The notes under the pieces are model-generated. The model was not told the origin of the DNA, searched no databases, and saw only the letters and a program-made list of their open reading frames with translations. Positions 610-48,850 of a DNA stretch of 64,000 nt are shown here, in pieces (positions within the stretch are counted from its first letter, which is position 1; every line of letters begins with the position of its first letter). Both the position numbers and the translations under genes were made by a program. Origin of the DNA: Limnothrix sp. BL-A-16 (lineage in GTDB: Bacteria; Cyanobacteriota; Cyanobacteriia; CACIAM-69d); assembly GCA_041937175.2 (NCBI GenBank), contig CP166615.1:1600001-1664000 (forward strand), given 5' to 3'.

Positions 610-1059
610 TCAATTAGCTTGCTCTTCTTGAAATGGGCTTGCATACCACTGTAAGTACCATTGTTCTGGATCCTCATCACTGGAACAGTCTTCATACTTT
701 GGAATATGAATCTGGTAAGAATCATGAAAAGACAAGTGAAGACTGTTGTCTTCCAAAAATTCGTACCCTGTAAATATGCTTTGATTTAACGGATGAAATA
801 GATTGCACCACTCTTGAAATCTTAGTCTGTAGTCAATATCTTCATAATGTGGGCACAAGTAGGCATCTGCAATCAGTTCTCCATTCTGCATAAATGACCA
901 AGGTGGGTCAATCCAAATGTAACCTTGCCTTTTTAATTTGTCTTTTTTTTCAAATCTGATTTTGATGGAATTACACGCAATTGAATGGTGACAAGTCTTT
1001 CCAATAAAACCTCTCAAAATCGGTTCATACTTTTGTCGATCACTAGTGATATGGCCCAA
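610..1059 (-). CDS. hypothetical protein (cassette 5 cargo)
   Basis: 149-aa AT-rich ORF downstream (on -) of a GTTGTCC core-like site at 1176-1182. Confidence 0.7.
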   Translation of the reverse strand: MGHITSDRQKYEPILRGFIGKTCHHSIACNSIKIRFEKKDKLKRQGYIWIDPPWSFMQNGELIADAYLCPHYEDIDYRLRFQEWCNLFHPLNQSIFTGYEFLEDNSLHLSFHDSYQIHIPKYEDCSSDEDPEQWYLQWYASPFQEEQAN

Positions 1060-1175: not shown

Positions 1176-1375
1176 GGACAACTATTGATTAAATGATTAG
1201 ATTGCAGTTGCTTGAAAACTCTTTCAGCAGAGTGTTGTTCAGCAGTGGCAAAACAATGTCATCAATTATCATACTTTTGTTGTAACGATCGCCCTGGAAG
1301 CGTCACAGCCCTAACCCAACAGCGCGATCGCCTGTTTCACCAGGTTCTCCGCCGTCAGACCGTTGAGGCCCATCA
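1176..1375 (-). repeat. copy D: 65 bp of phosphoketolase 3' end (1311-1375) plus diverged attI-like spacer
   Basis: Aligns to 8307-8537 (aacgatcgccctggaa.cgtcacagccctaacccaac...; ctttcagcagagtgttg). Confidence 0.9.
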
Positions 1376-1678
1376 AACGTCTTCATCGTAGGCTCTCGCA
1401 ATCGCGGTGTCGAAACGGCTGGCAAACTCGCAGAACTCCTGCCCCCAACCACTGCTCACACTGACCTCCTGGATTGGGCCGGTGGGAAGAAACAAAAGCT
1501 CAATGTCGGAACGCTTGGGTATGTCGCCAGACTCAATGCGAGAAACAATGCTGTCAATCTCTCGAAGTGCTGCCGGTGCATCCTTCCATGAAGACCAATC
1601 AAAGTTGTTGTCGGGCCGCGAGAGGAACTGGCGCGCCTCTCGGAGAACCTCAACCAACTGTTGGTGCTTGGAATTCAT
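1373..1678 (-). CDS. conserved hypothetical protein (cassette 4 cargo)
   Basis: 101-aa ORF with LFLPTGPIQEVSVSSGWG motif; starts 18 nt after a GTTAGGT core site; its stop codon lies in phosphoketolase-derived sequence. Confidence 0.75.
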   Translation of the reverse strand: MNSKHQQLVEVLREARQFLSRPDNNFDWSSWKDAPAALREIDSIVSRIESGDIPKRSDIELLFLPTGPIQEVSVSSGWGQEFCEFASRFDTAIARAYDEDV

Positions 1679-1695
1679 AGAGACGTGCGGATGAC

Positions 1696-2014
1696 ACCTA
1701 ACTATTTATTAGATCGCAGCTGCGGGATGACTCTTTCAGCAGAGCGTTGTCAAGCAGTTGCAGTGTAACTTCAGTATGAAGGGTATTATCCCGCAGTTGC
1801 GAGATAATACCCCCACTTATAGAACTTCTATCGCAACGATCGCCCTGGAAGCGTCACAGCCCTAGCCCAATGGCGCGATCGCCCGTTTCACCAGATTCTC
1901 CGCCGTCAGACCATTGAGGCCCATCAGTTGGCCAGCGGTGGCCGTCGTTTCGCCGCGCTTCCAGGCGAACAGATCGCGCGGGGCCGTGCTACGGAGGGCG
2001 ATCGGCTCCAGCAT
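1696..2014 (-). repeat. copy C: 153 bp of phosphoketolase 3' end (1862-2014) plus full attI-like spacer (1696-1861)
   Basis: Colinear with 8307-8625; translates to MLEPIALRSTAPRDLFAWKRGETT... Confidence 0.95.
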
Positions 2015-2018
2015 GGTG

Positions 2019-2753
2019 TTAGTCGTCGCCATCACGTTCAATCTCACGCTCAATAATCTCTTTGACAAACTCAGGCAGTTCCTTCTCAACACTGACAGCC
2101 CTTTGCTTGAGCCTTTCATAAATCTCAGTGTCATCTCCTTCCCAAAGCAGATCTATTCTTCTGATCTGCCGCATTGCAATATGCTCATAGCTTTCTGGAT
2201 AAGCCCAGTAGCAAGATAGACAAATAGATTTATCCTTAATGCTGTTCCAGTTTTCGCAATGTTCGCATGACCACGACTTGGCCCGGTTAGCTGAGCCACA
2301 AAGTAACATGAAATTTTCTGGGACTAGATCCGGCTCACCAGCAACTTCAAAAGGGACACGATGATCAATTTGTAATTCGCGTTGATTAACCTCTTCAAGA
2401 TAAATAAAGCACCTACATCCATATCTGCTAATCAGTGCCTCTTTAATCTGCTTGGATAAACCTGTTCTGCCAGAAAGGCGAGTGAATCTTGTCTTGCTAA
2501 TATCTCCAAGTCGATATGCAGCTATTTTTCTGCCATCGCTTCCAGTAACACGAAAAGTTTCTAATGGGATACCACTTTCTCTAACATCTCTAGCTGCTCT
2601 TGGAGGATGGTTATAACCGTAAGTTTCTTTTAATTCCTCAGTTGTAATAAATCCGTGTTGCAAGATGTGGTCAATGACTGCTTTCGGTCTCTTTGCTGTT
2701 ACAGAACGGCAAAGTTCCAGGAAGTCATCGGGTAGCTGCTGTGAATTCTCCAT
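2019..2753 (-). CDS. HNH-type Type II restriction endonuclease (SphI/NspI-like)
   Basis: DHRVPF...LCGSANRAK HNH core, CxxC motifs, N-terminal HPPRAARD; overlaps the MTase gene. Confidence 0.75.
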   Translation of the reverse strand: MENSQQLPDDFLELCRSVTAKRPKAVIDHILQHGFITTEELKETYGYNHPPRAARDVRESGIPLETFRVTGSDGRKIAAYRLGDISKTRFTRLSGRTGLSKQIKEALISRYGCRCFIYLEEVNQRELQIDHRVPFEVAGEPDLVPENFMLLCGSANRAKSWSCEHCENWNSIKDKSICLSCYWAYPESYEHIAMRQIRRIDLLWEGDDTEIYERLKQRAVSVEKELPEFVKEIIEREIERDGDD

Positions 2754-3672
2754 GTGTTTCCAAAAGGGTTAGCTGCTTTGGTTGTTGGTCAATATAGCTA
2801 AAATCATAAATTTTAGTGTTCATTAATTTTTTGGATAAACTTGGCGACAAGTACAGCGACTCAATTGTATTTTCCGATTTGCCTAGTAAGGTAGACTGTG
2901 AAGATCTGCCAACTTCGATTTCGATTCTTTCAAGATTTAAGCTATTAGGGAGAAATTTGCCAAACGCCTTATCACCTAATTTTCCGTCATAACTGATAGC
3001 AAATACAGATCCTTTTTGATTTAAGCATTCAAGCGCTAACACAAATTCATCGAAGTCTATCCCAGACAAATATCTTGAATCTCTATTGCCGCATACACCT
3101 TGATATGGAGGATCCATATAGATAAAATCACCTTCTTGAATTTGCTCTAATACCTCTCGGTAATCCAAATTAGTAAATTTACATTTGCTTTTGAGCAAAC
3201 TAGAAACACCGATTATATTTTTTCTCATTGTTTCGGGTCGTGTTCCTTTGCGTCTTTTGTCCGGACTTTGGTTAAACAATCCTTCAGAATTGTAGCGAAC
3301 CGAACCTTTAACGCACCTTGCTAGTAGATAAAGAAGTAGTTTTGGATCGTTGGTCTCATTGAATTTTGATCTGACTTCAAAGTAATGGTCTACAGAATTG
3401 GGGTGTTGTTTATTCCATAGCTCTAAGTAAAAATCGGCTATTTCGTCTGGTTTTTCTACAGCTAGTTCTAGGAGCTTGATGAGCGGATGGTTCAGATCGT
3501 TTAACCAAAAACTCTGGGTGATTTGACTTGCGGACGTAGCAACACTAATTGCAGCAGTTCCAGCAAAAGGCTCTACTAGCCTCTTGAATTTTTTTGGAAA
3601 GAACTGGAGGATGTGCTTTGCTAGCTTCCTTTTGCTGCCTTGATATTGAATGAAGTGGGGTAGGTTTGCCAT
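2725..3672 (-). CDS. Dam (D12)-family DNA adenine methyltransferase
   Basis: YQGSKRKL, EPFAG (motif I), DPPY (motif IV). Confidence 0.92.
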   Translation of the reverse strand: MANLPHFIQYQGSKRKLAKHILQFFPKKFKRLVEPFAGTAAISVATSASQITQSFWLNDLNHPLIKLLELAVEKPDEIADFYLELWNKQHPNSVDHYFEVRSKFNETNDPKLLLYLLARCVKGSVRYNSEGLFNQSPDKRRKGTRPETMRKNIIGVSSLLKSKCKFTNLDYREVLEQIQEGDFIYMDPPYQGVCGNRDSRYLSGIDFDEFVLALECLNQKGSVFAISYDGKLGDKAFGKFLPNSLNLERIEIEVGRSSQSTLLGKSENTIESLYLSPSLSKKLMNTKIYDFSYIDQQPKQLTLLETHGEFTAATR

Positions 3673-3785: not shown

Positions 3786-4019
3786 GACTAACGATTCATT
3801 CGGCTGCAATGATCGCCCGTTGAACCAGGTTCTCAGCCGTCAGACCGTTGAGGCCCATCAGTTGGCCAGTGGTGGCTGTCGTTTCGCCGCGCTTCCAGGC
3901 AAACACATCGCGTGGGGCCGTGCTGCGGAGAACGATCGGCTCCAGCATCGCACTCGTGCCGCCGGTCACGCCCAACAACGCATCACCGCCGAAGAGCCGA
4001 TCGAACGTTGTGCATCATC
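3786..4019 (-). repeat. copy B: about 200 bp of phosphoketolase 3' region (3811-4019) plus a minimal att-like end
   Basis: Aligns to 8488-8694 with 16 substitutions in the first 198 nt (manual count). Confidence 0.95.
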
Positions 4020-4075
4020 CACAGCAAGATAACGGTGTTAGCCTGTCTCAACCAATAGTTTAGTAGAGCAATCCA

Positions 4076-4900
4076 TTAATCTCTTTCCTCATCCTGAAGC
4101 TCTTTTTCGTCTATCTCAACTAGCTCATCAACTACCGAATCTAAAGAAGGTTGATCATCTTCTGAAGGCAATCTGTATTTAGATAAAAAACTCTGAAGCT
4201 TAGGATGCGGTATCCTTTTTAGCTTTCCAAAATTTGTATCCTCGTTAAAATCCTTACCTTCAGATTCCTTGCGACCATATGAATTTGTGTCTAAAGGTAA
4301 ACCTTTTCTGAGTTTTTCTTTCCCGATTTTGCTTAAAACCGTTGGCGTTTCATAATTTCCAAACCATCTTCCACCACGATCAGTCATACGTTTATCTCGT
4401 GCTTCAACAAGCTCAATCATAGAAAAAAGTTCGAGATCAATAATTTGGGGAACTGCTGCATCTGAGTTCAGATCATCTACCTCCATTCGATATGCTATGA
4501 GCAGCATTGCGTCTAACTCCGGATCGACATTTTTGACAGTTACTTTCTGAGTAAGTCGGGCTGATGGCTCTCGTGGTGTAGGCGGCTTTTTCATTTTAAG
4601 ACCAGGATTATCTACATAAAGAAGCTTTAGCTCCAACCTCTTGCCAGATTCATGTTTGTAATCTGGATATCCTTCTCTTTCTCCCAAAATACCTTCATGC
4701 TTTTCAAGCCCAAGTCCTTTTATATCCAAATGAGGAATGAGTGCATCCATCAAGGCACCTACAATTGTGCCTACTTGAGATGGTTCAAATGCGGTAATTG
4801 CTACTATCGGCAGACTTAAGCTCCGAAATTGTTGTCCTATCAAAGGCTTAAGTTGCTCTTTTAGCTTATCCAAGTCATGGTTCGATATGCGACCACTCAT
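4076..4900 (-). CDS. putative PD-(D/E)xK restriction endonuclease
   Basis: YPDY...LELK motif; coupled (ATGA overlap) to an HTH controller gene; next to an MTase. Confidence 0.7.
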   Translation of the reverse strand: MSGRISNHDLDKLKEQLKPLIGQQFRSLSLPIVAITAFEPSQVGTIVGALMDALIPHLDIKGLGLEKHEGILGEREGYPDYKHESGKRLELKLLYVDNPGLKMKKPPTPREPSARLTQKVTVKNVDPELDAMLLIAYRMEVDDLNSDAAVPQIIDLELFSMIELVEARDKRMTDRGGRWFGNYETPTVLSKIGKEKLRKGLPLDTNSYGRKESEGKDFNEDTNFGKLKRIPHPKLQSFLSKYRLPSEDDQPSLDSVVDELVEIDEKELQDEERD

Positions 4901-5157
4901 GTCTCTTTCTCTTCCTTCTGAATTTTTTGTTTTATTTCAGAAGGGAGGACATCTTCTAGATAAAGACCTAAGGCAGCACACCATTTAGCTGCTTCAATTA
5001 CATCAAGCCGTCTTTCACAGGTTTCTACCTTGGAGACCAAGGTTTGCTCTTTACCCAATCTTTCCCCCAACTGTTGCTGAGAAAGATTTTGTCTCTTACG
5101 AGCACGACGAAGGCGAGCAATAAACTCAATGTAGAGAGGGTCACGAGCACCCGACAT
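4897..5157 (-). CDS. XRE-family HTH, RM controller (C) protein-like
   Basis: LSQQQLGERLG...VSKVETCERRLD; immediately upstream of the REase. Confidence 0.8.
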   Translation of the reverse strand: MSGARDPLYIEFIARLRRARKRQNLSQQQLGERLGKEQTLVSKVETCERRLDVIEAAKWCAALGLYLEDVLPSEIKQKIQKEEKET

Positions 5158-5285
5158 AAGGCAGCAAGTATGCGAATTTAGGGTACAAGTTGAAGGTAGA
5201 GGATGCCATCCATTCCTGACCTAAATCGTGCATCTCCTTAGCAAATACCCCAAAAACGCATATTTATAGTTTCCCGACCATCGTC

Positions 5286-5314
5286 TTGACAAATGATCAA
5301 CCCTGCGCGATACT
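5286..5314 (+). promoter_or_regulatory. sigma70-type promoter for the MTase operon
   Basis: TTGACA-N17-GATACT, about 20 nt before RBS aagga and the ATG. Confidence 0.6.
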
Positions 5315-5336
5315 TCGGTTGACTAAAGGAATGAGT

Positions 5337-6629
5337 ATGGCTAAACGACATCAAAATCAACAAGGCAACCTCGAATCGCTGTTTCTTCGCATGGAAGAAC
5401 TTGTTCTTGCAAATTCTGGTGAGGACGAGTTTGAGGAGGTGTTTAAGTTGCTTGTAGCAAAGCTTTGGGATGAACGAAGCCAACAATCTAAATTTTATCG
5501 ATATAGCACTGATGAAGCTACCTTTGAAGCAATAGCCAAACTCATGAGAGAAGCGGAAAAAAAATGGTCGGGAGTTCTCAATGAAGTCACATCCAAACTT
5601 ACGCCTGAGCATCTTTCAATCTGTGTAGATGCTCTTTCAAAACATAACATCTCTAATGAAAGTCTTGATGTTATTGATAGTTTCTTTGAATTTATAGTAT
5701 CCAAGTCGGCAAAGGGAGCTAAAGGTCAATACTTTACTCCAAGGCATGTAGTTGAACTATGTGTAAGAATTTTAAAACCTTCTTCAGGTGAGACAATTCT
5801 TGATCCGGCTTGCGGATCGGGCGGATTTCTCCTCCACGCATTGAAATTTATTAAACAACATGAAAAGTTAGATAGTGGAGGAGAAATTCAAGGCTTTTGT
5901 AGTGAAAAATTATGGGGTTTTGATATTGATGCCAAAGCCACACGAGTTGCTAAGGCTTTAATGATACTTGCAGGAGATGGGAGTAGTAACATTGTCAGGC
6001 TTAATAGCTTATTGAAGCCTGAAATGATTGGGCTTTTTAGAAACACAGAAGAGCCGAATCTTACTATAGAGGATGTATGTCGAAGTCGAATTAAACGTCA
6101 CAAAGGTTTCGACGTTATCCTTACAAATCCTCCCTTTGCTGGTGAGATTAGAGAAAATAGCTTTCTCAATTGTTATAACCTTGCAAATAAAAAATCTCGA
6201 ATTGAAAGGGATATATTATTTGTTGAGAGATGCCTTGAGCTATTAAGACCTGGAGGGCGATTAGCTATAGTCTTGCCTCATAATAAGTTTGCCGGAAAAT
6301 CATTTGAGTTTCTACGACAATGGATTTTGAGGAAAGCAAGAATTCTTGCTGTCATAGGTTTAGGAAGAAATACTTTTATGCCTCATACTCATCAAAAAGC
6401 CAGTATTCTAATATTGAAAAAGCAATCTCCTGGGAAGAGTATCCCGTCAGATTATAATATCTTTTTTGCGATTAGTGAAAAAGATGGCAAGAACTCTAAG
6501 GGGCAGTTTGTTCTGCATGAATCTGTTGCGAGATTAGAAAATACTTGGGAAGATATAGATCATGACTTCTCAGAAATAGTTGAAGGCTTTGAGACATTCT
6601 TAAAACAGGAAAATATTGATTTCGAGTAA
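5337..6629 (+). CDS. HsdM-like N6-adenine DNA methyltransferase (M subunit)
   Basis: GQYFTPR, DPACGSGGFL, NPPF; start taken at the ATG after the RBS. Confidence 0.92.
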   Translation: MAKRHQNQQGNLESLFLRMEELVLANSGEDEFEEVFKLLVAKLWDERSQQSKFYRYSTDEATFEAIAKLMREAEKKWSGVLNEVTSKLTPEHLSICVDALSKHNISNESLDVIDSFFEFIVSKSAKGAKGQYFTPRHVVELCVRILKPSSGETILDPACGSGGFLLHALKFIKQHEKLDSGGEIQGFCSEKLWGFDIDAKATRVAKALMILAGDGSSNIVRLNSLLKPEMIGLFRNTEEPNLTIEDVCRSRIKRHKGFDVILTNPPFAGEIRENSFLNCYNLANKKSRIERDILFVERCLELLRPGGRLAIVLPHNKFAGKSFEFLRQWILRKARILAVIGLGRNTFMPHTHQKASILILKKQSPGKSIPSDYNIFFAISEKDGKNSKGQFVLHESVARLENTWEDIDHDFSEIVEGFETFLKQENIDFE

Positions 6630-6634
6630 CAAAT

Positions 6635-7294
6635 ATGGCTTTGATTTCGATTCAGTCAAAAACTCGTCTTGTGTCACCAGTAATTCTTGCTCCCGAAAGA
6701 TACGATCCAAGACGGAAAATCAAGACGCAAGAAAACGAAGTAGTTGAGCTAGGTGAAATCGTTATTTCCGTAAAGAAGATGGTTAAATCCTCTGTTAATC
6801 TTGGAAAATGTTTTGTTCTTGATACTTCTGACGCTCGAGAAGGCATTGTAATTGCCAGAAAGCAATCGCTGCAAGGCACTGAAATTGGTAGCACCAAGAA
6901 GGAGGTCAAATCTGGGGATGTTATTATCTCACGTCTTAGACCATATCTACGACAAGTAGCATTTATTGATGAAGAGATACCTAATGCTAATGGTACTCAG
7001 ATTCTTTGCTCTACGGAATTCTTTGTCTTACGCTCAATTGATAATCTATCGATAGCATTTTTGGTACCTTTTTTACTTTCAAACGCAATTCAGGAAGTAC
7101 TCGCAGCATCCCAAGAAGGTGGGCATTATCCTAGATTTATCGAATCGGCTCTTCTAACACTTCCTATACCCAAAAGCCTCTTATCCCAACGCTCACTGAT
7201 CTCTGAAGTTGTCAGAAATAGTGTTCAAATGTACAGAGCTTCTGAGAAATCGATGTCAAACATGGTCGAAAAGATTAACGCTACGCTGTCTTAA
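6635..7294 (+). CDS. single-TRD specificity (HsdS-like half) subunit
   Basis: GDVIISRLRPYL...CSTEFFVL motifs; 219 aa; directly after M. Confidence 0.8.
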   Translation: MALISIQSKTRLVSPVILAPERYDPRRKIKTQENEVVELGEIVISVKKMVKSSVNLGKCFVLDTSDAREGIVIARKQSLQGTEIGSTKKEVKSGDVIISRLRPYLRQVAFIDEEIPNANGTQILCSTEFFVLRSIDNLSIAFLVPFLLSNAIQEVLAASQEGGHYPRFIESALLTLPIPKSLLSQRSLISEVVRNSVQMYRASEKSMSNMVEKINATLS

Positions 7295-7350
7295 GATTTT
7301 TCTCATGAAATTTTAGATTTGCGGAGGGCAGCAAGACCTAGACTTTTGCA

Positions 7351-7436
7351 GGCTAACGTTCCTGGTCAGCGGTTGCCGATACCTTGTCCACTCCACAAGC
7401 AACTTGGGGCAATCCGCTGCACCAGGGTTGTTGTGC
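7351..7436 (-). other. attC-like recombination site (86 bp)
   Basis: On -: R'' GCACAAC, arm cctggtGcagcggAttgcc / ggcaaccgctgaccagg with two extrahelical bases, R' GTTAGCC. Confidence 0.85.
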
Positions 7437-8313
7437 TGCGTGCTGAACTATTCATTATTTACTTTAGGTTCTGAAGGTTTTGGTTCTCGCAACTTATTCT
7501 TAACTTGATTGTTAGAATTATTTAGAAAATCAGATTCTATACCAGCAGAACTCCTTTCAATCAGGTTTGTAATAAGCTTATCCATAAGTTGTAGGTTTTT
7601 CTCTGGATCTTTAACTTGCTTACAAAGCTCAACAGCTAGCATTGTGTCTTGAATTCTAGTCAGTTGCTTATAGAATCGATTAGATTGCTCAACTGTCCGG
7701 TTATAAAGAACAAAGTTAGCACCTCCTATGAATTGAAGAATTATTCCAGAAATGCCAGATATAATCGACAACTCAAGCTTTTGTCCTTCTTTAATAAAAG
7801 GTAGCAATATTGCTATAACTACAGTAATAAATCCTAAAAATATGACTAATGCGCTGAAGCTAAAGCTACGTCTTGCTTGATTTTTGTTAATTGTATAGTA
7901 CTCGGTAATCTGATTTAAATTTAACCTTATAACATCTACAACACTATCTTCTCTTTCAATTCTTTCAATAATCTTTTCTCTTTCTTGCTTTATTGCTTTT
8001 ACTTCGATTGTTTCTGAGATTGCTGATTTGGATAAACTAAAAGGATTATTGGACAGGAGAAAAAACACAACAATTACAGTAAGAGGCAGTGTAGGAATAC
8101 CCAGGAAATTCCCAACCCACGCGACTAGAGCCGCCGTTATGAAATTAGCGGGGATCTCAGTCATCATTACTTGTGTCCATGCTTCTTTAAAGCTACTGGC
8201 TCTTTTTCTCATAATGAATTTCCGTAGGCGTTGTATTTGGGAAAAGTTGCTAATACCTTAGCAAAAGAGCATAGCTTTTGATACTCCCCCAACCAATAAC
8301 TCAGCAGCACAAC
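7357..8313 (-). mobile_element. integron-like gene cassette 1
   Basis: gcagcacaac (8304-8313) and gttgtgctgc (7430-7439) are a perfect 10-bp inverted pair; full attC follows the ORF. Confidence 0.85.
7448..8212 (-). CDS. membrane protein with a TRADD-N-associated 2-TM-like domain
   Basis: EYYTINKNQARRSF + TM + ISGII.QFIGG.NF.LY pattern; additional N-terminal TM segments. Confidence 0.6.
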   Translation of the reverse strand: MRKRASSFKEAWTQVMMTEIPANFITAALVAWVGNFLGIPTLPLTVIVVFFLLSNNPFSLSKSAISETIEVKAIKQEREKIIERIEREDSVVDVIRLNLNQITEYYTINKNQARRSFSFSALVIFLGFITVVIAILLPFIKEGQKLELSIISGISGIILQFIGGANFVLYNRTVEQSNRFYKQLTRIQDTMLAVELCKQVKDPEKNLQLMDKLITNLIERSSAGIESDFLNNSNNQVKNKLREPKPSEPKVNNE

Positions 8314-8472
8314 TATGTATTAGACCGCAAGTGCAGGATAACTCCTTCAGCAGAGTGTTATCAAGCAGCTACAGTCTAACTCCAGTCCAAAGGGTACTAC
8401 CCCGCAGTTGCAGGATAATACCCCCACCTATAGAACTTCTACCGCAACGATCGCCCTGGAATCGTCACAGCC
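8307..8472 (-). other. attI-like spacer between the phosphoketolase stop and the first cassette (copy A)
   Basis: Ends in a GTT core; internal palindrome at 8392-8423; homologous to 1696-1861 and 1176-1310. Confidence 0.6.
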
Positions 8473-10686
8473 CTAACCCAACAGCGCGATCGCCCGTTTC
8501 ACCAGGTTCTCCGCCGTCAGACCGTTCAGGCCCATCAGTTGGCCAGCGGTCGCCGTCGTTTCGCCGCGCTTCCAGGCAAACACATCGCGCGGAGCCGTGC
8601 TGCGCAGGACGATCGGCTCCAGCATCGCACTCGTACCGCCGGTCACACCCAACAATGCATCACCACCAAAGAGCCGATCGAACGTCGCATCATCAATAAA
8701 GTGAGCATCCGGCTCCGAGCACATCTCCACCGCCACATCGGTCGATCGGTAGAGGCGACGGGGGCTAATCACCGACACGATCCGCGAACCGATCCCCTGG
8801 GCCGCCAACTGTTCGGCGGCCGCCAGCGCCGGGGTCAAGGTCATGTCACCAATCACCGCCAAGACCACGGTTTTTTCGCCGGGCGTTTCTTGCAACACAA
8901 AGCCGCCGTCCTGCAAGGCTTGGCGCGTTTGCTCAAAGGTCGAGACGATCGGCAGCGGCGACTTGCTGACCGTAATCGTGATCCCCTTGTTCACTTGCGC
9001 CAGCGCCCAGTCATAGCAAGCCTGGGTGCTGTTCGCATCGCAGGGGAACAGCGGGAAGATGTTGCCGTTGCGCATCATCGCCGCGAAGTAGTTTTCGATT
9101 TCCGGGCGTTGGTGCGTCCAGCCGTTGCGGCCCTGCTCCAGCGCACCCGCCGTGAACAGGCAGACCGTGGCGGGCGTGGGGCGGCGCAACTCGGCCATGG
9201 CTTGGGTGACGGTTTGCCAAATCGGCAGACCGTTGATCGCGAACGACTCGTAGGAACACCAGAGCGATCGCGCCCCAAACAGGGCTTGCCCCACCGCCAA
9301 CCCGGCGCAGGCATCCTCGTTCAGGGGTTCATACACCTGACCATCGGGCTGTTGGAAATAGATGGGGTCGGTGGTCGGGTGAACGATTTTCAGGCCCACA
9401 TTGATGTTGTTGATCCCCGAGGCGGCGTTGCCGTCGGCGTTGGTGACGATGAAGTCGCGATCGGCTTGACCCACTTGCACCACCACATCGCCCATGGCCG
9501 TGGTCGAAACCTTCTTTTCGCCGGCCGGGAATTCCACCAGGTTCAGCTTGCCCAAATCCGCTAGGGGCCGCACCTTTTCGGTCACGGCCACCTGAGCCGC
9601 CGGGCCACCGCCCGATCGCTCAAAGTTCGTCCGCACCAGTTGCCAAGCCTCCGGCGACAGGGCCCGCTCCTTCAGGGCCGCCACAATGTAGTCCCGCTCC
9701 AGGTTGTCGCCGGGATAGAGGTTGTGGGACTGAGCACCGCGCTTGTGTACGCCCGCGCCCTTCAGTTGCTTGATGATCAACACCGTCAGCTTGCCGCCCA
9801 AGGCCAGTTTCGCCGCCTGGTCGGTGGCTTCCAGCACTGCCTGGGCAAACACCAATCGCTGGGCAAAGGAAAACTGGGTGCTATCGACGTAATCGCCCGG
9901 TTGGTTGGCATCGTCGAAGTCCTTGGCATCCAGCAGCACCACTTCTTCAAAGCCATTGCCGCGCCAGTAGGCTTCCATGGCGGCGTTGGATTTGGTGGAG
10001 ACCATGCTGTGGTGCTCTTGGCTGTAGCCGTTCCAAATCAGAATCGGCAGGAAGTTGGTGGCCTGCGGATAGGCGGTGTTGAAGTGGCCAAAGCTGCTCA
10101 TGATGTAGGGTTCGCCCAGGCCGCCATCCCCGATCGTCACGGGGAAGAGGGTTCCGGGGAACAGCTTGGCCCCGGCCATGGCAAAGTGCTGACCCTGGCC
10201 GAGGGGGCCGGCGGGGGCCAGCAGGCCGGGAATTTGCCCCGACAGGTGGCCGAGCAGGCCGTGGGTTTCGCGGAATCGATCGCGCAATTGCTGCACCGTC
10301 GTGATGCCCATGGCTTCGAGCGATCGATCCAAGAACACCTGGGAATAGAAACCGGGGGCGTGGTGGCCCACTTCGGTGGTGAAGTTCTTGTAACCGAGCA
10401 TGATCAGCGCCGCCATCACATCGGCAGAGCTGGCATAGCCGCCGGGGTGGCCCGATTCCTTGCTGGCGGTCATCTGCACGATCAGGTAACGCAGGGCATC
10501 GGCCGCCAGGAGAGTTTGGAAGGCCGCCGCTCGATCGCTCGGGCTGGCGATCGCCCCTGTGGTCGCATCCACGGCTGGCGCAGCACCCAGGATGTCAAAT
10601 TCGGGCCAAGGCGCACCGAAGTATTGAATGCCGTCGCAAAACGCAGGCGTGGTCGTGGGTGCGGGGGTTGTGGCGGTCATGGGCAA
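8473..10686 (-). CDS. xfp: phosphoketolase/transketolase-family ThDP enzyme
   Basis: SGHPGG, GDGG...N ThDP motif, NGWTHQRP. Confidence 0.85.
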   Translation of the reverse strand: MPMTATTPAPTTTPAFCDGIQYFGAPWPEFDILGAAPAVDATTGAIASPSDRAAAFQTLLAADALRYLIVQMTASKESGHPGGYASSADVMAALIMLGYKNFTTEVGHHAPGFYSQVFLDRSLEAMGITTVQQLRDRFRETHGLLGHLSGQIPGLLAPAGPLGQGQHFAMAGAKLFPGTLFPVTIGDGGLGEPYIMSSFGHFNTAYPQATNFLPILIWNGYSQEHHSMVSTKSNAAMEAYWRGNGFEEVVLLDAKDFDDANQPGDYVDSTQFSFAQRLVFAQAVLEATDQAAKLALGGKLTVLIIKQLKGAGVHKRGAQSHNLYPGDNLERDYIVAALKERALSPEAWQLVRTNFERSGGGPAAQVAVTEKVRPLADLGKLNLVEFPAGEKKVSTTAMGDVVVQVGQADRDFIVTNADGNAASGINNINVGLKIVHPTTDPIYFQQPDGQVYEPLNEDACAGLAVGQALFGARSLWCSYESFAINGLPIWQTVTQAMAELRRPTPATVCLFTAGALEQGRNGWTHQRPEIENYFAAMMRNGNIFPLFPCDANSTQACYDWALAQVNKGITITVSKSPLPIVSTFEQTRQALQDGGFVLQETPGEKTVVLAVIGDMTLTPALAAAEQLAAQGIGSRIVSVISPRRLYRSTDVAVEMCSEPDAHFIDDATFDRLFGGDALLGVTGGTSAMLEPIVLRSTAPRDVFAWKRGETTATAGQLMGLNGLTAENLVKRAIALLG

Positions 10687-10962
10687 TTCACCTAGTGGTT
10701 CGACTCTCTCGACTGTAAGGCCAGTCTTGAGGCGATATTTTACAACCTTGATGTTGCTAAAGTCTCAGGACGATCAACTCAGGACGATCGAAACCGGCCC
10801 CTTAACGACCCGTTGTACTGGGGGCTGGACGATCAGCAGGCGATCGATTGTGGCAGTCTCTCGCTAAATTTGCCGCCCTAGTCCAGACCCAAAACGCCAC
10901 GCCCTAACCCATCAACCCTGTTGATAGACTGGGGGCAATTCCCCGATCGAAACTGGTCGCCT

Positions 10963-11508
10963 ATGTTGACCCTGGCGCAATGGACCGTGGCGGAATATCA
11001 CCAAATGATCGCGGCGGGCCTGCTGGTCGATCGCCGCGTGGAACTGTTGAACGGGCAAATTATTGAAATGTCACCGGAAGGGCCGGAGCATACCTATCGC
11101 GGCGAAACCCTGGCGGAGTGGCTGCGCGATCGCCTGCGGGGGCGAGCCTATGTGCGGGAAGCGCGACCGATTACCCTAGACCATTCGGAACCGGAGCCAG
11201 ATATTGCCGTGGTGCGGGGCGATCGATCCCAATTTGTCCAACGACATCCCGGCGCGGCGGATCTGTTTTGGGTGGTGGAAATTGCCCGATCGACCCTAGC
11301 CACAGACCTGACCCACAAGCGGGATCTCTACGCGCGGGTGGGAATTCCGGAATATTGGGTGGTGGATTTGGTGAATCGGCGGGTGGTGGTGTTTCGGCAA
11401 CCGGAAGCGGGCCGCTACAGCCAAGCGGAAACGGTGAGCGATCGCCCGATCGCGCCGCTGGCTTTCCCGGACTGTGCGATCGACCTGACCCAGCTCTTTC
11501 AACCGTAG
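10963..11508 (+). CDS. Uma2-family (DUF820) endonuclease-like protein
   Basis: RVELLNGQIIEMSP, PEPD, K..LYA..GIPEYWVVD. Confidence 0.92.
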   Translation: MLTLAQWTVAEYHQMIAAGLLVDRRVELLNGQIIEMSPEGPEHTYRGETLAEWLRDRLRGRAYVREARPITLDHSEPEPDIAVVRGDRSQFVQRHPGAADLFWVVEIARSTLATDLTHKRDLYARVGIPEYWVVDLVNRRVVVFRQPEAGRYSQAETVSDRPIAPLAFPDCAIDLTQLFQP

Positions 11509-11540: not shown

Positions 11541-12086
11541 ATGTTGACCCTGGCGCAATGGACTGTGGCGGAATATCACCAAATGATTGCGGCGGGCCTG
11601 TTGGTCGATCGCCGCGTGGAACTGTTGAACGGGCAAATTATTGAAATGTCACCGGAAGGGCCAGAACACCGCTACCAATGCAGCAGTTTGGGCGATCGGC
11701 TGCGGGTGCTGTTGCGCGATCAGGCTTGGATTAGTGAGGCACACCCGATTACGCTGGATGACTCGGAACCGGAGCCGGATTTGGCCATTGTTCGGTTGCC
11801 TCGATCGGCCTTTCGCGATCGCCACCCGGGGCCAGCGGATCTGTTTTGGGTGATTGAAATTGCTCGATCGACCCTCACCACAGACCTGACCCACAAGCGG
11901 GATCTCTACGCGCGGGTGGGAATTCCGGAATATTGGGTGGTGGATTTGGTGAACCGGCGGGTGGTGGTGTTTCGGCAACCGGAAGCGGGCCGCTACAGCC
12001 AAGCGGAAACGGTGAGCGATCGCCCGATCGCGCCGCTGGCCTTCCCGGACTGTGCGATCGACCTGGCCCAGCTCTTTCAACCGTAG
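11541..12086 (+). CDS. Uma2-family endonuclease-like protein (tandem paralog)
   Basis: Same motifs and same length as the upstream copy. Confidence 0.92.
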   Translation: MLTLAQWTVAEYHQMIAAGLLVDRRVELLNGQIIEMSPEGPEHRYQCSSLGDRLRVLLRDQAWISEAHPITLDDSEPEPDLAIVRLPRSAFRDRHPGPADLFWVIEIARSTLTTDLTHKRDLYARVGIPEYWVVDLVNRRVVVFRQPEAGRYSQAETVSDRPIAPLAFPDCAIDLAQLFQP

Positions 12087-47119: not shown

Positions 47120-47287
47120 TCGAACCTAGTAGCGCGACAGGCTTAATACATTGGGTCAAAGTTGCGGAGCCAGTCAAAGTTGCGGAGCCAGTCGTGTTAA
47201 CAAGGGGCTTGAGCATCTTGTTGCTTAACGATCAGGTGACGGTAACAGCCATATCATTTGACCCAGCGAATTAAGGCAGCCACGCTA

Positions 47288-47761
47288 CTAGGGCGCAGTT
47301 TGACCGTCGCCGGTCGATCGTTGCATTTGCAGCAGCGACCCGTTGTAAGGGTTCGGTAAGTCCTGTGTCCGAATCCAAGGATCAGACAGGCTTTGGCGCT
47401 GAAGCACCTCGTAATACAGGCGGCTGATGTTGCGGCTGTCGGCGTTTGTGCCCTTTTCGGGGAACGGCAGCCCTAGGATGACCTGCAACTGTCCCCAAAT
47501 CGTTTGATCGGTGTGGGTTGGGGGGTTGTGGCGATAAAACGTTGCGTCAAAGGCTTGGGGAATGGTGGTGATCGGAATGGCGGCCGAGGAACGGCTGCCG
47601 GGAGTACCGGTTTGCGCCGGGCCGCTGCCCAAGGGGTCGTTTGGCCCCGGCACAATGACCCGATCGCCATAGTCAGCCGACTGGGCCAAGGCGGGGCCCA
47701 CGCTCAAAACCGTGGCGGCGATCGCCGAGCCGATCACAGTAGCCCAAGTGGTGGTCTTCAT
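47288..47761 (-). CDS. exported hypothetical protein
   Basis: Signal peptide ending PALAQ; RTQDLPNPY..SL motif. Confidence 0.7.
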   Translation of the reverse strand: MKTTTWATVIGSAIAATVLSVGPALAQSADYGDRVIVPGPNDPLGSGPAQTGTPGSRSSAAIPITTIPQAFDATFYRHNPPTHTDQTIWGQLQVILGLPFPEKGTNADSRNISRLYYEVLQRQSLSDPWIRTQDLPNPYNGSLLQMQRSTGDGQTAP

Positions 47762-47926: not shown

Positions 47927-48850
47927 TTAAAGATCCAAATAACGCCCAGAACTGTCCTGGGGTCGGGCATGGAGATAGCGGCCTGTGGTGGCAATGCTGG
48001 CATGGCCCAGGGTGGCTTGCACCAGGTGAATCGGCGCACCCCGATCGAGGCTGTGGCTGGCGTGGGCGTGGCGCAACCAGTGGGGCGAAACATTGGCCTC
48101 AATGCCCACTCGCTGGGCTGCCGATCGCACAATTCGCATCAGTTGCGAGGGATCCAGGTGGCCCCCCTTGCGGCTCCGAAAAATCGGATCTTGGCGATGG
48201 GGCAACGGCTCGATCGACTCGCGATAGGCCTGGAGTTCTTGCCAGAGCGTTGGCGGCAGCAACACCGCGCGGGTTTTGTTGCCCTTGCCATAGACCGTCA
48301 CTTGGCCCCCATCCCCTCGGGGTTGCAAATCTCGCCAACAAAGTCCACAAAGCTCACTAGCTCGCACCCCGGCCGCATAGAGCAATCGCAACATTAATCG
48401 ATTGCGCAGTTGTGGTTCTGCCGCCAGCATTTCTTGTACTTGAGTCTCACTTAAAATTCGCTCCGAAAGAGTGTCTTTCGTACTGGGGACTTTAAAAGCC
48501 ACTGCCGGATTGTCGGGAGCCAGGCCCATTTGATGCGCAAACCGCAGCAGGGATTTAATGGCCGCGATCGAACGGCCCATGCTGCTCGGAGCCAGTCGAT
48601 CGCGCTCCAACTCATCCAAAAACCCCTGCACATCAATGGCGCTCACCTGCTCGATCGGGCAATCCACAAAAGCCAGAAACCGCAAGGCCTCCCGCTGGTA
48701 ATAGCGACGGGTGTGGCGACTTTTGCCATGGAGCCACAGGGCCAAGAGTCGTTCATGGGCTGGCGAAAGGGGCAAATCTGGGCGATCGACCCGATCGGGT
48801 TCAGGCCGTGAGCCGATCGATTTTCGAGAAGCGCCGCCCAATTTCGCCAT
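47927..48850 (-). CDS. tyrosine recombinase (XerC/D-like)
   Basis: GVRASE, GKG.KTR, HWLRH, LGH...T.RY. Confidence 0.93.
   Translation of the reverse strand: MAKLGGASRKSIGSRPEPDRVDRPDLPLSPAHERLLALWLHGKSRHTRRYYQREALRFLAFVDCPIEQVSAIDVQGFLDELERDRLAPSSMGRSIAAIKSLLRFAHQMGLAPDNPAVAFKVPSTKDTLSERILSETQVQEMLAAEPQLRNRLMLRLLYAAGVRASELCGLCWRDLQPRGDGGQVTVYGKGNKTRAVLLPPTLWQELQAYRESIEPLPHRQDPIFRSRKGGHLDPSQLMRIVRSAAQRVGIEANVSPHWLRHAHASHSLDRGAPIHLVQATLGHASIATTGRYLHARPQDSSGRYLDL

Follow-up and report, generated by a model that had tools for sequence, protein, structure and literature searches.

Silent-site divergence of gene-end fragments behind an attI-like element in Limnothrix sp. BL-A-16, a putative integrase-less cassette array

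Integrons of the Cyanobacteria were treated in 2016 by Cury et al. (PMC4889954), who reported many attC-site clusters without an integron integrase (CALIN) in genomes devoid of an integrase. A locus of comparable appearance is described here from the cyanobacterium Limnothrix sp. BL-A-16 (genome of 4.56 Mb with 55% GC, labelled G000), and lies in a stretch of 64,000 nucleotides (nt) of contig CP166615.1 (GenBank assembly GCA_041937175.2, positions 1,600,001 to 1,664,000 of the forward strand), which is termed the window and whose first letter is position 1. Behind a phosphoketolase-like gene at 8473..10686 on the minus strand, referred to as the resident gene, three truncated copies of its own 3' end (fragments B, C and D) are stacked among cassettes, and a 149-nt attI-like element, designated E, begins 25 nt past the resident stop codon. 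The fragments differ from the resident gene mostly at silent sites, and comparison of the sequences supports that this divergence would have arisen in functional alleles. The reading preferred here, to which a probability of roughly 0.7 is assigned, is that the window holds the cassette array of an integrase-less chromosomal integron at E, in which the fragments are attI-type pseudo-cassettes refreshed by homologous recombination.

In common with CALIN and decayed sedentary chromosomal integrons, as they are portrayed in PMC4889954, the arrays contain co-oriented, low-GC cassettes, mostly with a single open reading frame (ORF), together with structured sites ending in GTT, and no integrase. 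They differ from CALIN in that they start at a conserved 149-nt attI-like element, which is present at several loci per genome beside unrelated host genes, and include recurring copies of the element together with its host flank, while the array of the window has one well-kept attC-type site.

Cassettes of the delta-attI type were described in mobile integrons by Gonzales Machuca et al. in 2026 (PMC12901181), and within a cassette array they follow the order attC, insert, whole or partial attI, the insert being a resistance gene and the attI piece mostly measuring 14-18 nt; the attI core is given there as an A-rich stretch followed by GTTRRRY, with the class 2 consensus AATAAAATGTTRRRY. The same order recurs at the present loci, where E ends in AATAMATAGTT plus an RRRY-like word. 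In contrast with the published cassettes, the insert here is a dead 3' fragment of the gene flanking attI, the attI copy is in most cases complete, and there is no integrase. By architecture alone, five of the eight fragments that share a left junction termed J (described below) agree with the delta-attI pattern, the fragment and its E directly following a match to the attC-type model R2; in the window, C and D carry E and B has lost it.

The sedentary integrons of Vibrio (bioRxiv 10.1101/2024.07.02.601686) hold anti-phage defence genes as cassettes, which is paralleled here by two restriction-modification (R-M) systems; those arrays, known from Vibrio and its relatives, are large and have an active integrase, whereas the present one is short, integrase-less and cyanobacterial. 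One of the two R-M blocks found here (3.3 kb, with genes on both strands) exceeds the usual cassette size. Stacked partial 3' ends that accompany variable DNA and can be swapped by recombination are also known from the orphan toxin-immunity modules of rhs/cdi loci and from displaced 3' ends at tRNA sites. In contrast to both, the fragment here is invariant and without alternative function, cassettes with no relation to it make up the variable DNA, and an attI-like site forms part of the repeats.

The ingredients of the locus, namely cyanobacterial integrons, CALIN, attI-type cassettes and defence cassettes, are therefore known. What appears to be new is that an attI-like element present in multiple copies seeds arrays at several loci of integrase-less genomes, together with the ends of host genes as pseudo-cassettes and the signature of their refreshing by recombination; in the open-access literature, no description was found of the multi-locus attI-like element, of host-gene-end pseudo-cassettes or of the recombination-refresh signature.

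Silent-site bias of the gene-end fragments

The resident gene encodes a protein of 737 amino acids, and the repeats derive from its last 70 codons. The first-pass annotation, which was made from the sequence without database searches, had named it xfp, and this name fits loosely: Pfam XFP (44 bits) and XFP_N (33 bits) exceed their cut-offs, but they cover about 120 and 160 residues, and the protein falls below all NCBIfam phosphoketolase models, the best of which gives 100 bits against a cut-off of 777. Weak matches to NCBIfam transketolase models were recorded as well. Because the Pfam matches are partial and the NCBIfam cut-offs are far from being reached, the wording "phosphoketolase-like" is used.

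A BLAST search of the whole genome revealed, besides the resident, three partial copies of its 3' end only, all on the minus strand. Fragment B (3811..4019; 91% identity over 209 nt) comprises the last 66-70 codons without the final four, and a repeat finder aligned its positions 3811-4008 with 8488-8685 of the resident at 92% over 198 nt without gaps, apart from which B has a 2-nt insertion at its left end. At a GCGATC word, where the last four codons and E have been lost, B breaks into a different tail with a TGA at 3796-3798 and no E after it. Both this junction and the left one are shared with the positional counterpart of B in a sister species (fragment f1 of genome G002), which is strongly decayed, with a 69-nt deletion, a frameshift and six replacements in 24 codons. 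Fragment C (1862..2014) retains the last 50 codons and the stop codon, together with 162 nt copied from downstream of the gene end (89% over 315 nt including E; 1877-2074 and 1700-1999 in the repeat finder), and its left part has been replaced in G000. Fragment D (1311..1375; 97% over 92 nt; 1229-1375 in the repeat finder) retains the last 20 codons and the stop, and part of the downstream sequence is copied here too. The left edge of D would be due to a secondary deletion between two CGTTT words, as the longer fragment f3 of G002 suggests.

Between B and the resident, 16 of 198 bases differ. According to the codon table, 14 of the differences, all at third positions, are synonymous, and two are replacements (GCT>ACT, A>T; AAA>CAA, K>Q), in exact agreement with the count of the first-pass annotation. 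The Nei-Gojobori estimates are 0.323 for synonymous divergence (dS) and 0.014 for non-synonymous divergence (dN), with a dN/dS of 0.043. When 16 substitutions were placed at random in 100,000 simulations, with the share of transitions kept as observed, 4.96 of them were synonymous on average, and 14 or more occurred with P = 1e-5. Fragment C differs from the resident at 13 positions over codons 24-73, of which ten are synonymous and three replace an amino acid, again as had been noted at first (dN/dS 0.095; simulation P 7e-4). D shows one synonymous and one replacement difference and is without statistical power because there are only these two. Relative to its source, a neutral pseudogene would show a dN/dS near 1, instead of which 0.04-0.10 was obtained for B and C; values approaching neutrality came only from G002 f1 and f3 (0.19-0.39, with six and four replacements in 22-24 codons).

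Variants shared by the fragments and absent from the resident, to which the first-pass annotation had drawn attention, are real: CTC at codon 56 occurs in B, C and D, and GCC-34, GCC-48 and CTC-30 occur in B and C. They are not fragment-specific but ordinary polymorphisms of full-length genes. CTC-56 is also present in the resident alleles of the sister species G001 and G002 and of the sister genus G003, as well as in those of three metagenome contigs. All other resident-type alleles examined have GCC-34, and at least two resident alleles have GCC-48 and CTC-30.

The alleles compared were the residents of G001, G002 and G003, to which a search of metagenomes with a degenerate pattern of codons 41-62 added ten loci; fragment-versus-fragment counts outside each homologous range are contaminated by unrelated flank and were excluded. 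Among nine resident-type alleles of the genus, pairs differ by 6-17 synonymous changes and no replacement (codons 4-73). Against each of the nine, B shows 10-14 synonymous changes and the same two replacements, and it is closest not to its own resident (14 + 2) but to the metagenomic resident allele of locus L074 (10 + 2). C is also closest to the L074 resident (6 + 4, compared with 9 + 4 for its own), and D is closest to its own resident. A natural allele nearer than the resident, on whose existence the first-pass annotation had staked its proposal, was thus found for both B and C.

The pairwise silent excess alone is not decisive, because an old local copy would also give it, the resident branch being constrained. 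The points that decide are that B stands as far from all nine resident-type alleles as these stand from one another, that fragments and residents are mixed in the tree described below, and the outcome of a decay test. In this test the two replacements of B bound its time as a dead sequence to about 0.014 changes per site, for which 1.5 synonymous changes would be expected against the 14 observed (P 7e-10; 0.0012 if the upper confidence bound on replacements is used), on which grounds a local copy with neutral decay is rejected. Counted against the first four residents, the private changes of B are six silent and one replacement, and those of all other fragments pooled are nine silent and 19 replacements, which is the neutral ratio. 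With more alleles included, most private silent variants of B are found in full-length genes. CCA-35 and ACA-47 of B occur otherwise only in a 69-nt fragment (L082 1712-1780), and no full-length gene with CCA-35, ACA-47 or ACT-50 was detected in the metagenome contigs searched, in which closer residents were found.

The phylogeny that had been proposed as a check was computed by maximum likelihood over the 198 nt, and only the sister genus was separated; fragments and residents are interspersed within the genus, where their relations are left unresolved at this length. Taken together, the assertion that the fragments diverged within functional alleles is supported, and of the two origins offered by the first-pass annotation, displaced former ends or imports, an import into an older fragment is favoured for B.

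Element E, attC-type sites and the integrase search

Element E was modelled as a covariance model, R1, from an alignment of 12 copies at nine loci with a mean identity of 81%. It is shared downstream of the stop codon by the resident and by fragments C and D, all on the minus strand: copy A (8300..8448; 149 nt) scores 166 bits, copy C (1689..1837; full length) 159 bits, and copy D (1177..1286), which the alignment shows to be partly deleted, 41.5 bits (E-value 1.6e-8). The ends are precise, as the element starts at G|TTGCGG and homology among the copies stops at ATAG|TT, and its fold has a z of -3.7. With R1, E was detected in four of the eight genomes of the family at one to six loci each; the carriers are all three species of the genus and one species of the sister genus, and none of the four species of a third genus. 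E heads every array. The GC content at copy A falls from 63% upstream to 37% downstream, and in all 13 E copies that border conserved DNA, which correspond to about nine independent loci, it is higher upstream (56-63%) than downstream (35-57%). Since Rfam (E <= 1) and scans for tRNA and tmRNA (window 1-12000/14000) gave no match, E belongs to no known RNA family and is no integration site of the tRNA type.

Two other identities for E were considered. That of an attC site is rejected, since on both strands the boxes of the outer palindrome stand in reversed order (GTT first, AAC/T last) and the spacing is asymmetric; that of a dif-like Xer site at the 3' end, where the arms are not palindromic, is purely speculative.

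The hairpins that separate the cassettes were described by a second model, R2, built in this analysis from four attC-type sites. It gave 24 matches of 73-96 nt in 279.5 kb of loci, of which 23 lie downstream of, and co-oriented with, an E, and over eight whole genomes 15 of 18 matches fall in E-headed arrays. The R2 stem is 94.9% paired, shows compensatory two-sided change at nine of 11 pairs and has a score reached by none of 500 shuffles, figures that come from an alignment fitted to the model; slid controls were also far below. An attC site has a 5' box with the consensus RYYYAAC. In the R2 sites, which stand at the far ends of cassettes, the 5' box reads YTAAC and the 3' box CGTTAG, and they agree with the definition of attC as an imperfect hairpin of about 57-141 nt with a 3' box GTTRRRY after a promoterless ORF, the structure being better conserved than the sequence; the site at G002 C90, with an inner loop and a bulge, folds with a z of -3.6. 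In the window, the hairpin closing the first cassette (7349..7434, minus strand) ends in CGTTAGCC and matches R2 with 46 bits (E-value 6e-11), and its alignment with 23 other sites displays covariation in the stem. A script scan for attC-like box pairs gave about 28 matches per Mb and strand in the chromosome, was judged too unspecific and served as a pointer only.

Taking CALIN as at least two attC sites within 4 kb without intI, the array of the window offers one site, remnants at 4033-4043 and a weak candidate at 84-131, whereas a second array of G000 (locus L041) contains four R2 matches within 4.3 kb and the G002 array behind the same gene contains three. The layout recurs in two sister species and several metagenome contigs. 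Across the arrays, the cassettes encode GNAT acetyltransferases, a SUKH protein, methyltransferases, R-M systems and small ORFs of unknown function, contents that are typical of integrons.

The second E-headed array of G000 (contig C1, 3,430,660-3,437,200; L041 1660-8200) lies upstream of an ABC-transporter permease gene and has four or five attC-type sites with SUKH, DUF6331, methyltransferase, zinc dehydrogenase and GNAT cargo. E and 220 nt of its own upstream flank are duplicated there between two cassette blocks.

None of the eight family genomes has an integron integrase over the cut-off of TIGR02249, and in the class 95 of 301 genomes are positive. In G000, neither TIGR02249 and PF00589 nor a tblastn search with an integrase remnant from G003 brought to light an integrase or traces of one, and an Xer-like gene was all that was found. 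This gene, the sole tyrosine recombinase of G000 (47927-48850, minus strand), matches the XerC/XerD models with 182 bits, below their cut-off, and its match to the integrase model omits positions 182-232, the integrase-specific region; as an enzyme for the arrays it is a candidate by default only. Its distance from the array is conserved in G002. Elsewhere in G000, unlinked to the arrays, a serine recombinase model matched weakly once, and Y1 transposase models matched once or twice.

Outside G000, E or an E-like element adjoins integrase sequence in two genomes. In G003 (C12:2395-2607; L102) a truncated integron integrase gene with the N-terminal 39 residues lies 8 nt from the first half of an E, in divergent orientation; its best NCBIfam matches are both integron integrase models (E-value 1e-7), PF13495 is above its cut-off, and five cassette ORFs, one encoding a di-haem cytochrome c peroxidase, follow with an attC-type site. 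In G110, from a different family, an intact integrase gene (487 bits) has an E-like element 33 nt away, divergent and ending in AATATATAGTTAGCC (26.7 bits). Because of these neighbours and its attI-core-like end, E is read as the attI of a cyanobacterial integron lineage. An integron integrase would once have acted on E and the hairpins, and on this analysis the arrays are read as putative integrase-less integron remains of the CALIN class.

Origin and upkeep of the fragments

Junction J (4020..4043, minus strand), as delimited by alignments, begins with what is left of the 5' box of an attC (GGCTAACACC) and continues through G|TT and a 13-nt piece (TTATCTTGCTGTG) into codon 1 of the repeat; the same 13 nt form the start of the first cassette after E at G002 C47. 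J is common to eight fragments in six genomes or contigs, namely B, the fragments f1, f3 and f4 of G002, and four on metagenome contigs. The R2 match directly before five of the eight is found in other genomes and contigs, and of the attC before B the 5' box alone remains. This sharing argues for one founding event rather than repeated displacements. Units of gene end plus E that head their own cassette or cassettes were also located at G002 C90:46581-46897 (L039 8585-8898; 137 nt coding) and at G003 C9:592252-592449 (about 15 nt coding), and the G000 locus matching the former has other low-GC DNA without E. From the differing left edges (G002 C90, G001 f1, L081 and G003 C9) it follows that gene end and E were copied more than once, twice to other loci.

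A sequence of events compatible with these observations can be proposed. The array would be docked at E, 25 nt past the resident stop, and E would be followed by cassettes split by attC-type hairpins or their remnants ending in G|TT. Fragments of type J most likely began as one duplication of about 390 nt, reaching from codon 1 of the repeat through E to 13 nt beyond and showing a TGTG microhomology, after which cassettes would have been inserted at the upstream E. Each fragment would originally have had its own copy of E downstream, in the order attC, gene fragment, attI, and C and D would be later deletion derivatives. Presumed to be untranslated, the fragments would carry few replacements because homologous recombination rewrites them from functional alleles, possibly by gene conversion from residents, by uptake of DNA from related lineages, or by exchange between the resident end and a fragment in the course of cassette gain or loss. 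The interior of B would accordingly be a functional allele that arrived recently from a different lineage of the genus, set within old junctions. Both the founding duplication and recombination as the refreshing process are inferred. Natural transformation feeding chromosomal integrons is documented in Vibrio (PMC12614218).

Several points weigh against this picture. No integron integrase is found in the genome or the family, tblastn with the G003 remnant finds nothing in G000, and therefore nothing in the genome is known to use the sites today. The link of E to an intact integrase concerns one of six integrase loci, at 26.7 bits, several of these loci having no flank, and the domain of the 39-residue G003 remnant also occurs in Xer recombinases. 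E itself does not match the attC box order, and R2 was built from four sites and is not the standard IntegronFinder model. The window's own array has one clear attC-type site (7349-7434), and the distal cassette ends at 4005-4110 and 520-650, as well as those at 5010-5150 and 8020-8150 in G002, fold no better than shuffles. The inner joint of J, between the 13 nt and codon 1, is not at a GTT, so that the duplication step was not site-specific and stays inferred. For C, f2, C90 and G001 f1, the conservative form of the decay test does not reach significance (P 0.13-0.3), and the 198-nt tree is a star without resolution within the genus.

A more far-reaching proposal, which is regarded as doubtful, would make E a portable docking site. 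Its copies would have reached at least nine chromosomal loci in two genera, seeding a small array at each and at times taking the end of the neighbouring host gene along. As the genomes have no integron integrase, the arrays might be serviced by integrases visiting on mobile DNA or by the single Xer-like recombinase, and the gene-end copies might act as homology handles by which cassette blocks are swapped between strains or deleted with no harm to the gene.

Among the competing explanations, displacement alone appears unlikely but survives best: each cassette block would have brought its own gene end and E by a single crossover or by one-sided homologous recombination and thereby pushed the former end downstream, so that every fragment would be an earlier resident end of this lineage and rewriting would not be called for. 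Such insertions would give the order gene, E, cassettes, fragment, E, cassettes, and D is nearest to its own resident with 1 + 1 differences. The resident gene is moreover a mosaic in its 3' two thirds, its identity to G002 being 94-98.5% over the first 750 nt and 86.5-96% beyond, where it is no higher than that to more distant lineages, and the L082 fragment pairs weakly with a resident-like copy on the same contig (86/60). Against this stands the single left junction of eight fragments in six genomes or contigs, which points to a single founding event. B differs from M82b by 13 silent changes and four replacements, although without rewriting about 40 replacements should accompany so many silent changes, and B and G002 f1 differ greatly in their decay.

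It is improbable that no integron is involved at all and that the locus is a recombination hotspot in which R-M units were inserted with long target duplication, E being terminator-like and the hairpins incidental. Insertion of R-M units in this manner has reportedly been described for Helicobacter; two cassette blocks of the window are indeed R-M systems between direct repeats of the gene end, no integrase was found in the genome, and most cassette ends in the window have no good hairpin. However, E and co-oriented hairpins occur together at no fewer than nine loci with mostly non-R-M cargo, the hairpins combine strong compensatory change with both attC terminal boxes, and E adjoins an integrase gene or its remnant in the two other genomes mentioned above.

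Still less credible is the view that the fragments are small coding genes under selection, for instance for a C-terminal peptide of about 60 amino acids from an internal start. B is open for 60 codons (3796-3978) in the frame of the gene and dN/dS is low in several fragments, yet no start is conserved, an in-frame TGA precedes the first conserved codon of B by three codons, other fragments of this type contain frameshifts (f1, M76f1), deletions of 69 or 15 nt and varied truncations, and the pooled private changes of the other fragments, nine silent and 19 replacements, stand at the neutral ratio.

That the fragments are dead copies made locally from the genome's own gene and mutating irrespective of codon position, with a silent excess due to chance or mutation bias, deserves practically no credence, as the first-pass annotation had maintained: its sole favourable point is that the copies are truncated and unable to encode the enzyme, against which stand a P of about 1e-5 for 14 silent changes among 16 under random mutation, the 1.5 silent changes expected where 14 are seen, and the fact that B is no nearer to its own resident than to eight others.

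Under the preferred reading of refreshed pseudo-cassettes in an integrase-less array, selection need not be the cause of a silent-site bias when the copy that shows it is truncated and not translated, as the bias can also trace recombination with working alleles, and such a trace would be usable to date and follow gene flow at a hotspot. The locus would further provide a natural chromosomal counterpart to the attI-type cassettes, of which descriptions have so far come from clinical mobile integrons. It also points to cyanobacteria in which cassettes, including R-M systems, are retained and exchanged without an integrase of their own, and this bears on the origin and mobility of integrase-less clusters, a question for which the multi-locus attI-like element would be a convenient substrate.

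Cassettes and neighbouring genes

Following copy A of E, the first cassette of the window contains an ORF of 254 amino acids (7448..8212, minus strand) with a cyanobacterial TRADD-N-associated domain with two transmembrane segments (PF20712, 60 bits) and no PADLOC match. The R-M cassette of 4076..7294 comprises a half S subunit (6635-7294) and an N6 methyltransferase (5286-6629) on the plus strand, and a control protein (4897-5157) and a probable nuclease (4076-4900) on the minus strand. Pfam assigned N6_Mtase (135 bits) and HTH_3 in it, and PADLOC assigned MTase_I (320 bits), Specificity_I (65 bits), Control_protein (38 bits) and a weak REase_II match.

Beyond fragment B, a Type II R-M cassette (2019..3672, minus strand) harbours a D12 adenine methyltransferase (2725-3672) and an HNH-type nuclease (2019-2753), supported by Pfam MethyltransfD12 with 125 bits and by PADLOC MTase_II and REase_II with 220 and 195 bits; the methyltransferase part is 94% identical to its counterpart at the same array position in G002. 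Two further cassette ORFs on the minus strand gave no Pfam, NCBIfam or PADLOC match. The first (1373..1678; 101 amino acids) has its stop codon within the first bases of fragment D and is 94.5% identical to the ORF of G002, which extends two codons more. The second (610..1059; 149 amino acids) is, by BLAST, 86% identical to the G002 ORF at the same array position. Farther along, at a GC boundary past a helix-turn-helix gene (262-501), lies a 48-nt inverted repeat on the minus strand (84-131) with the ends ATTCAAC ... GTTAGAT, which is possibly a minimal attC, was picked up by the unspecific box-pair scan only and folds no better than shuffles.

Just upstream of the resident gene, two tandem genes of the Uma2 family (putative restriction endonuclease-like) occupy 10921-11508 and 11541-12086 on the plus strand, with about 75% identity to each other over 300 nt. 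A dispersed repeat of about 123 nt is situated at 47173-47292 and has about 50 further copies in G000, 70-87% identical among themselves; it is probably a miniature mobile element, and one copy belongs to the flank duplicated in the second E-headed array. Finally, a split IS5-type transposase (HTH_Tnp_4 and DDE_Tnp_4; C1:1589587-1590416, L006 3587-4416) was located near the far side of the low-GC region that extends upstream of the window.

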